From Longimicrobiales bacterium (GTDB lineage Bacteria > Gemmatimonadota > Gemmatimonadetes > Longimicrobiales > Gaopeijiaceae), in the NCBI GenBank assembly GCA_963664435.2, contig CAXXKM010000003.1, positions 1,184,001 to 1,248,000 on the forward strand: a stretch of 64,000 nucleotides of DNA, written 5' to 3'. Under the pieces are notes generated by a model. The model ran no database searches. It saw only the letters and a program-made list of their open reading frames with translations, and had not been told where the DNA came from. Of this stretch, positions 20,362 through 20,640 are shown piece by piece. Numbering within the stretch: the first letter of the stretch is position 1; every line of letters starts with the position of its first letter. A program made the translations under genes and the position numbers.

Positions 20362-20474
20362 TCGTTGCCGGGGTCCAAGGACCTCGGCCTTTGTTGAGCG
20401 AGTTTCGGGCCTCTTGGGGCATCCACAGGTTGGGTCTGGTCGCCGGGGCTTTGGCCCCGGCCTTCGTTTGAACG
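20362..20474 (+). CRISPR. One-spacer mini-array / CRISPR-like RNA made of two degenerate repeats
   Basis: TCGTTGCCGGGGTCCAAGGACCTCGGCCTTTGTTGAGCG (20362-20400), 36-nt spacer (20401-20436), TGGTCGCCGGGGCTTTGGCCCCGGCCTTCGTTTGAACG (20437-20474); both resemble the main repeat and keep a hairpin. Confidence 0.88.
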
Positions 20475-20611
20475 CGTGAGCAGCCCGCAGCTCTCATTCC
20501 GCGTTGTGCCAACTTGCTCCTGACGGCCTCCACGATACGTCAAACCTGGTGAGATCGGCCTCTTCCCGTTGATCTCCGGAGGTGTTATCGTTGAGGTGTA
20601 GATAAGAAGTA

Positions 20612-20640
20612 TTGCGCCAAGTGGCGCTAAACTGTATGCT
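20612..20640 (+). promoter_or_regulatory. Predicted sigma70 promoter of the cas operon and target of the mini-array spacer
   Basis: TTGCGC-17 bp-TATGCT, ending 43 nt before the cas7 GTG; AAGGAGGGAG RBS at 20671-20680. Confidence 0.75.

Follow-up and report, generated by a model that had tools for sequence, protein, structure and literature searches.

A short CRISPR-like element directly upstream of a cas operon raises the question of whether it is a remnant of an immune array or a regulator of the genes that follow it. The case considered here lies in a 64 000-nucleotide (nt) stretch of DNA from a Longimicrobiales bacterium (assembly GCA_963664435.2, contig CAXXKM010000003.1, positions 1,184,001 to 1,248,000 of the forward strand), hereafter called the window. 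The element consists of two degenerate repeats around a single spacer, in the manner of a very small CRISPR array, and stands ahead of csb1 (cas7g), the first gene of a type I-G cas operon. We consider that this mini-array is probably a CreR-type regulatory gene, whose CRISPR RNA (crRNA)-like product would guide the type I-G Cascade complex to the promoter of its own operon. A crRNA-like RNA that directs Cascade to its own promoter had been proposed in an original prediction made from the letters of the sequence alone, and it is the reading best supported by the sequence and by comparison with other genomes, namely by co-variation in orthologues, by the freedom of every sixth spacer position, by a stop of pairing after 21-23 nt and by a TAC or TAT flank. 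Autorepression by degenerate mini-CRISPRs explains how type I systems limit their cost and the danger of autoimmunity, yet rise when crRNAs accumulate or when anti-CRISPRs block Cascade.

A degenerate two-repeat mini-array upstream of csb1

The mini-array is read on the plus strand and comprises an upstream repeat, PsiR1 (20362-20400), a 36-nt spacer, PsiS (20401-20436), and a downstream repeat, PsiR2 (20437-20474). To identify repeat-like sequences, a covariance model was built on 23 related I-G repeats and run with filters off on positions 1-29000 of the window. PsiR1 was recovered with 32.1 bits (E = 3e-8) and PsiR2 with 32.6 bits (E = 2e-8), which bears out the two degenerate repeats around a 36-nt spacer that had originally been described; all coordinates and letters of that description were correct. 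The third match was the reverse strand of the PsiR2 hairpin, and the next independent one had an E-value of 0.06. When the model was applied to the whole 4.5-Mb genome, the 34 repeats of the main array passed together with PsiR1 and PsiR2 (next match, E = 0.099), the latter two being the only repeat-like elements outside the main array.

In the canonical repeat of the main array, a GC hairpin precedes a 12-nt tail, CTTC-GTTGAGCG. According to the accessible part of a published I-G study, cleavage by Csb2 falls 4 nt 3' of the base of the hairpin, and a 5' handle of 8 nt remains (PMC9638904), and a repeat tail of 4 + 8 nt after the hairpin fits this cleavage site. In PsiR1 the hairpin is altered yet kept according to folding prediction, and the last 8 nt, GTTGAGCG, are exactly the canonical 5' handle, as had been noted for the upstream repeat. 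In PsiR2 the hairpin and the CTTC cleavage context are near-canonical and the handle portion is degenerate (GTTTGAACG). This division, with the 5' handle kept in the first repeat and the 3' hairpin kept in the second, is also seen in the related loci L044-L048 and in the genomes G607, G718 and G806 (see later in the text).

A possible third repeat at about 20329-20363, which begins like the repeat for 10 nt, was discarded, as it was not significant with the covariance model and was poorly alignable. Upstream of PsiR1, an octamer, GTATCTTG, occurs in both the window (20319-20326) and G718 (locus L088, about 1156-1163), and may be the -10 region (TATCTT) of a promoter belonging to the mini-array itself. 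A search of Rfam with positions 20100-20720 gave only two matches, both far below the gathering scores. Contigs from four sequencing runs are identical across 20150-20800; they contain no variants, and hence no strain-level co-variation, and no contig ends fall there.

The spacer matches a site just upstream of csb1

The first 21 nt of PsiS are complementary to a promoter-like site at 20613-20633, which lies 51 nt before the csb1 start; compared with the minus strand of this site, they match at 17 of 21 positions, with mismatches at 6, 8, 12 and 18 only. Beyond nt 21 the likeness collapses, and nt 22-36 match the continued target at 2 of 15 positions. The match, its four mismatches and its end after nt 21 are thus as originally described. 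Of the four mismatches, three take up every sixth position of the paired stretch and the fourth is position 8, so that the score outside positions 6, 12 and 18 is 17/18. By our own count, only 18 of the 5985 ways of placing four mismatches in 21 positions cover 6, 12 and 18. The sharp fall after nt 21 together with the six-base periodicity is what Cascade-type pairing predicts and what neutral decay does not.

The uniqueness of the match was assessed at two scales. For the genome as a whole, the 18 non-sixth positions of nt 1-21 were compared with both strands of the three contigs (9.0 million positions). A single site matched at all 18, namely PsiS itself, and a single site at 17, the target; none matched at 15 or 16, and 14 sites matched at 14. 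If sixth positions are ignored, the target is therefore the best non-self match of PsiS in the genome (17/18; runner-up, 14/18). Within a neighbourhood of 730 nt (19984-20714), the observed score of 15 was reached by none of 1000 shuffled spacers, whose maximum was 10. The real spacers of the main array scored at most 8 in the same region, against 15 for PsiS; here and below, array spacers are the 32 of 34-38 nt that sit between exact repeats.

Spacer and target co-vary in related genomes

The original prediction had suggested looking for co-variation of spacer and promoter in homologous I-G loci. The closest Cas7 relatives found are those of G607, G718 and G806 (76%, 75% and 74% identity, respectively), which belong to another family of the same class. 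Each of them has a mini-array in the position equivalent to that of the window, and their main arrays stand at an equal downstream distance. Each orthologous PsiS pairs from nt 1 with a promoter-like site of its own genome: over the 20 non-sixth positions of nt 1-23, the number matched is 17 in the window, 16 in both G607 and G806, and 18 in G718. None of the 16 cells that the sixth positions (6, 12, 18 and 24) make up in the four loci is matched, pairing ends at nt 21-23 in all of them, and nt 25-36 match at 2 of 12 positions in each. In G607 and G718 the target is also the best non-self match within the 18-kb locus, with scores of 16 and 18 and a runner-up of 14 in both.

To quantify co-variation, the sequences were aligned from PsiS through the target and the 20 proposed pairs were scored in the four loci, giving 80 cells. 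Paired cells amounted to 83.8%, a value reached by none of 500 shuffles, and sliding the register by one to three columns lowered it to 29-46%. Changes on both sides were found in 4 of the 20 pairs (positions 4, 5, 19 and 23), which 4 of 500 shuffles also reached. Because G607 and G806 are close, the independent lineages number only about three, and these figures support the proposed pairing short of proof. Within PsiS nt 1-23, G607 and G806 are distinguished by two positions only, 3 (paired in neither) and 12 (a sixth position). The three orthologues thus keep the pairing through compensatory changes, and the pairing of spacer and target appears to be evolutionarily maintained.

Promoter context and candidate PAM

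A putative cas promoter can be read on the plus strand at 20612-20640, with a -35 hexamer TTGCGC (20612-20617), a 17-nt spacer and a -10 hexamer TATGCT (20635-20640). The block 20600-20649 has the lowest GC content of the region (0.42, compared with 0.652 for the window; 50-nt blocks). In the orthologues, the hexamers read from the alignment are TTGCGC/TATTGT, TTGCGC/TACTCT and TTGTTC/TATTCT, likewise separated by 17 nt, and several relatives without a mini-array have, by eye, similar hexamers before cas7.

On the minus strand, the target is flanked at its 5' side by TAC (20634-20636), which would be the protospacer adjacent motif (PAM). The flank does overlap the -10 box as had been proposed, the -10 itself being predicted, and its TA coincides with the first two bases of that putative hexamer. 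If the promoter is right, the guide spans the whole spacer between the -35 and -10 hexamers, and the T-A of the flank is the opening T-A of the -10. The same flank, TAC, is found in G607, G806 and three loci of a separate clade (L046, L047 and L048), and TAT in G718. In the available portions of the I-G literature, a 5'-TAT-3' PAM is given for the csb1-csb2-csb3 system of Bifidobacterium lactis (PMC12915315), from which the TAC of the window differs by one base, and a TTN PAM is reported as well (PMC9638904). TAC and TAT are plausible candidates for the PAM of the present system.

Proposed mechanism

Starting from the elements described above, the unique match, its periodic mismatches and its conservation in orthologues with compensatory changes, we infer transcription, processing, PAM function, promoter identity and repression from published work on CreR and on regulatory mini-arrays. 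The mini-array would be transcribed on the plus strand, and Csb2 would cut 4 nt 3' of each repeat hairpin, that is, between CTTT and GTTGAGCG in PsiR1 and between CTTC and G in PsiR2. The expected product is an RNA of about 73 nt, made of the 8-nt handle GUUGAGCG, the 36 nt of PsiS and a 29-nt 3' hairpin. Once loaded with this RNA, the I-G Cascade would recognise TAC, and nt 1-21 of PsiS would pair with the plus strand in the interval from the -35 to the -10 hexamer, 51 nt before csb1 begins. The resulting R-loop would cover only about four of the six 6-nt segments; it would occlude RNA polymerase and not license Cas3. Such an arrangement would place cas expression under negative feedback, to be relieved when other crRNAs titrate Cascade or anti-CRISPRs block it.

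A more ambitious combination of these elements is conceivable, to which we give distinctly less credence than to the guide itself. The regulator might be built into the core promoter, with the T-A of the PAM serving as the T-A of the -10 and the guide lying over the whole -35/-10 spacer; pairing held at 21-23 nt, about four Cas7 segments, might mark a natural threshold at which the I-G Cascade binds and does not cut; and an inverted repeat present in the target (see below) might provide a second, protein-read or structural layer, so that the promoter would integrate Cascade occupancy with another signal.

A separate clade and the distribution of mini-arrays

Cas7 relatives were collected from a genome contig collection (4 loci), from metagenome contigs (69 loci), from genome samples (relatives, order and phylum) and from the family of G607 (114 genomes). 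A repeat profile was used to scan 71 upstream regions, 57 of which were distinct. On the cas strand, two-repeat mini-arrays were found only in L044, L046/L047, L048 and L036/L037, and a single repeat in L003 (1/57).

L044, L046/L047 and L048 form a separate clade whose Cas7 is about 52% identical to that of the window. Their own mini-array stands 220 and 154 nt before cas7 and contains another spacer. This spacer is best matched by a promoter-like site on the minus strand, flanked by TAC and about 530 nt ahead of cas7, upstream of the mini-array. In L048 the match extends over 14 nt, in which every one of the 12 non-sixth positions agrees and the sole mismatches are at 6 and 12 (0/1000 shuffles); in L046/L047 it extends over 17 nt, with agreement at 13 of 15 non-sixth positions (25/1000 shuffles). 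Spacer position 10, G or A, changes in step with the target within the L046-L048 clade.

The order of elements in L046 (598-1206), shared by L044, L047 and L048, is a frame that by eye resembles VapC, the targeted site, a conserved segment of about 280 nt, the mini-array and cas7. The segment contains a 77-codon frame with the same stop in all three distinct sequences; a coding test of it showed no codon-position bias and no excess of third-position substitutions. The guide of this clade may control the 280-nt segment as well as cas.

Weighing the evidence for autorepression

Several observations weigh against autorepression by the mini-array. Position 8, which normally belongs to the seed of type I systems, is mismatched in the window, G607 and G806. 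Regarding the placement of the target in a cas promoter, as originally predicted, its position between the two hexamers stands, whereas the promoter itself is weak: the hexamers TTGCGC/TATGCT agree with the consensus at 7 of 12 positions, and a sigma-70 consensus scan of 20100-20800 gave no promoter-like site. The conserved inverted repeat within the target is not needed by the RNA model. In L044 the orthologous target is degenerate, and no target was found for the L036/L037 mini-array or for the single repeat of L003. The mini-array is, moreover, far from universal among relatives; a two-repeat form on the cas strand occurs in only 4 of the 57 distinct upstream regions of the contig collections, and the 12 loci from genomes of the window's own family with 66-73% Cas7 identity (L079-L086, L089-L091 and L099) gave no repeat-like match. 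No RNA run is among the sequencing runs listed for 20150-21400.

Finally, no PAM could be derived from the main array, as no protospacer of its spacers was found in phages, plasmids, IMG/VR or the genomes of relatives. The whole array gave only chance-level matches (E of 0.2-0.7) in phage and plasmid collections, no match in IMG/VR was obtained with the first 24 nt of each of the 4 spacers tried there, out of 32, and a comparison with 401 genomes of the order returned related arrays, weak matches and one self-match of spacer 14 only. When the G718 array was compared with 114 genomes of its own family, arrays and stray repeats were recovered and no protospacer.

Alternative explanations

The first alternative is a guard of the CreTA type, in which the RNA would repress a toxic RNA or small protein instead of, or besides, the cas genes, so that loss of Cascade would kill the cell. 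CreA antitoxins share the anatomy of the mini-array, as far as the accessible text of two studies goes (PMC10120712; 10.1101/2023.03.10.532045). Between the mini-array and the promoter of the window (about 20577-20605) stands a Shine-Dalgarno-like GGAGG, followed after 8 nt by the four-codon frame TTG AGG TGT AGA TAA (about 20591-20605), and the arginine codons AGG and AGA are expected to be rare in so GC-rich a genome. We rejected a CreT-like role for this frame, as it is not conserved and lies on the wrong side of the promoter: it precedes the targeted promoter, and in this stretch G607, G806 and G718 have gaps or cannot be aligned. Downstream, the 51 nt between target and csb1 leave no space for another gene. 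In the L046 clade, the target precedes the conserved segment with the 77-codon frame, itself followed by the mini-array; that segment lacks the excess of third-codon-position substitutions. We consider a toxin guard improbable.

The second alternative concerns the inverted repeat. Inside the target, and within the 17-nt promoter spacer, the window has GCGCCA-AG-TGGCGC (20614-20627), and the orthologous sites (L087, L088 and L102) have GCGCC-N4-GGCGC in G607 and G806 and GTTCCA-AG-TGGAAC in G718, the two arms having changed in a compensatory way. In the window and in G607, each arm of the symmetry can be followed for about 11-12 bp. The inverted repeat may act as a second element of control, possibly an operator read by a protein, possibly a hairpin. 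Taken further, PsiS and the target could be two operators of a dimeric transcription factor, whose likeness would then not reflect pairing of RNA with DNA; the conserved symmetry of the target speaks for this, and two co-evolving operators would likewise co-vary. PsiS, however, breaks the symmetry (GGGCC..GGGGC in the window). Its likeness to the target sets in exactly with the first base that follows the 8-nt handle, and TAC or TAT adjoins the target. At positions 6, 12, 18 and 24 none of the 16 cells matches, whereas the symmetric partners of 12 and 18, positions 15 and 9, match in 2/4 and 3/4 loci, respectively. Positions 4, 5 and 23, which co-vary as well, lie beyond the symmetric core. 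Moreover, the inverted repeat is not a motif that recurs in this genome: GCGCCA-NN-TGGCGC has six sites and the extended form one. Paired operators are very unlikely.

An inert relic, whether the decayed remnant of a former array or a decaying self-acquired spacer, is no more credible: most related I-G loci lack a mini-array, L022 has decayed minus-strand repeats 1.2 kb upstream with no evident target, and a perfectly self-matching spacer in the main array means that self-acquisition occurs in this system, but neutral decay would spread mismatches evenly instead of leaving 17/18 non-sixth matches in nt 1-21 and 2/15 in nt 22-36, the same boundary, periodicity and compensatory changes recur in three further genomes of another family, and the handle and hairpin are selectively kept.

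Relation to known systems

Regulation of a cas promoter by a crRNA-like RNA of Cascade is, as a kind, already known. CreR has been demonstrated in types I-B, I-E and V-A, including its relief by competing crRNAs (Liu et al., 10.1101/2023.03.10.532045). In the accessible part of the same preprint, creA-like mini-CRISPRs are reported from a manual search for types I-D, I-C, I-E, I-F and I-U, I-U being the earlier name of I-G, and repression without cleavage by a mini-array guide is described for I-E. For type I-F1, repression of a reporter by a mini-array guide was shown, with no restriction of a plasmid (Shmakov et al., PMC10120712). Table 1 of that article, as available to us, gives 235 I-G loci with a mini-array fraction of 0.04.

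The locus of the window resembles CreR, as portrayed in the accessible text (10.1101/2023.03.10.532045), in being a degenerate two-repeat mini-CRISPR beside effector genes with no evident toxin partner, in keeping the 5' handle in PsiR1 and the 3' hairpin portion in PsiR2, and in showing partial, PAM-proximal complementarity in or next to the cas promoter. It differs in the length of pairing (21-23 nt here, 15 consecutive nt in the Salmonella I-E case, as far as it is described there), in the mismatch at every sixth position and in the place of the target, which lies between the predicted -35 and -10 with its flank overlapping the -10, whereas that of Salmonella I-E is about 140 bp upstream of casA. 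The regulatory mini-arrays of Shmakov et al. likewise have two repeat-like sequences and a spacer partly complementary to a cas promoter (PMC10120712); the targets detailed in the available text are upstream of cas8 (I-E and I-F1), cas10d (I-D) and cas6 (I-B), in contrast to csb1/cas7g here. The CreTA modules of haloarchaeal I-B systems share the crRNA-like anatomy and Cascade-dependent repression of a promoter, which is proposed here; unlike them, the present locus has yielded no conserved toxin candidate, and the targeted promoter runs straight into csb1. A more distant parallel is tracr-L at the cas9 promoter of type II-A, where a natural, partially matching RNA guides the effector to repress its own promoter, as we propose here. 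From what is accessible of that account, tracr-L belongs to a class 2 system and has another RNA architecture and an 11-bp duplex (PMC10120712).

Whether the case had already been described for I-G was a question that the original prediction had raised. The class of mechanism is published, and 'I-U' mini-CRISPRs are mentioned from a manual search (10.1101/2023.03.10.532045). Our literature search found no experimental or detailed description for I-G, though journal versions and supplements may hold more; a 2026 preprint on crRNA-like RNAs of phages mentions neither I-G nor I-U. The present locus is a well-supported case of this known class, with some particulars of its own, namely the target inside the predicted core promoter, the conserved pairing length of 21-23 nt and the TAC/TAT flank.

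The window locus and its orthologues thus offer a natural I-G example with co-variation, for a subtype that in the literature accessible to us otherwise receives only passing bioinformatic mention. They provide a candidate PAM, TAC/TAT, and a length of partial pairing that apparently avoids the licensing of Cas3. The compact cassette of promoter and guide could be tested heterologously and might suggest a design for self-limiting I-G CRISPR interference. The hosts are apparently uncultivated symbionts, one source of DNA with the stretch being labelled sponge metagenome, and inference from sequence is thus the main route to regulation in these hosts.

The type I-G locus and other observations

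NCBIfam profiles reveal an intact type I-G cas operon on the plus strand of the window, with the signature genes csb1/cas7g, csb2 and cas3g all scoring above the curated cut-offs of their profiles. csb1 (20684-21880; TIGR02570, E = 1.6e-17) opens the operon; its start codon is GTG, preceded by AAGGAGGGAGG, and the start position aligns with those of relatives. It is followed by csb2 (21796-23334; TIGR02165, E = 1.6e-54), which encodes a Cas5-Cas6 fusion and presumed crRNA endonuclease, for which a sequence search for solved structures returned none, and by cas3g (23327-26176; TIGR02621, E = 5.6e-187). The product of 26173-27060 matches the type I-G 'Cas3-extension family' (NF049934, E = 1.4e-15) and is possibly Csb3-like; its 57.7 bits are below the curated cut-off of 65. 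The adaptation genes cas4 (26988-27674), cas1 (27662-28678) and cas2 (28682-28972) were identified by profile matches and occupy 26988-28972. The main CRISPR array (29179-31613, plus strand) contains 33 exact 37-nt repeats (29179-31538), one degenerate terminal repeat and 33 spacers.

Spacer 14 of the main array (30160-30193) matches the host chromosome at 34 of 34 positions (G000:C2:517105-517138), inside a frame that by eye resembles a class-III aminotransferase. The site is 86-94% conserved in several genomes of relatives. Its 5' flank is CCG, with a TAC two bases farther out, and the identity extends 2 nt into the repeat. The same genome has a second, divergent I-G-like cas7, 33% identical, on another contig (G000:C2:510917-512065, locus L009), with no repeat of the modelled family anywhere near.

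Solitary repeats lying kilobases from arrays were noted in G718 (L101, 567-603), G806 (G806:C1:171284-171317) and G497 (G497:C3, near 2357712 and 2375013). The repeat is exact in G718, and the G806 and G497 copies are 88-97% identical to it. In L017, a short array in opposite orientation (9787-9970) lies 31 nt upstream of cas7.

Finally, a recurring TGTCAC(A) motif is found 130 nt ahead of cas7 in numerous distant loci, for example L038, L040, L041, L055, L062, L065 and L036. By eye, it is followed after about 15-17 nt by GTA/TA-rich hexamers before cas7, and the whole looks like a promoter type shared by the more distant I-G loci.

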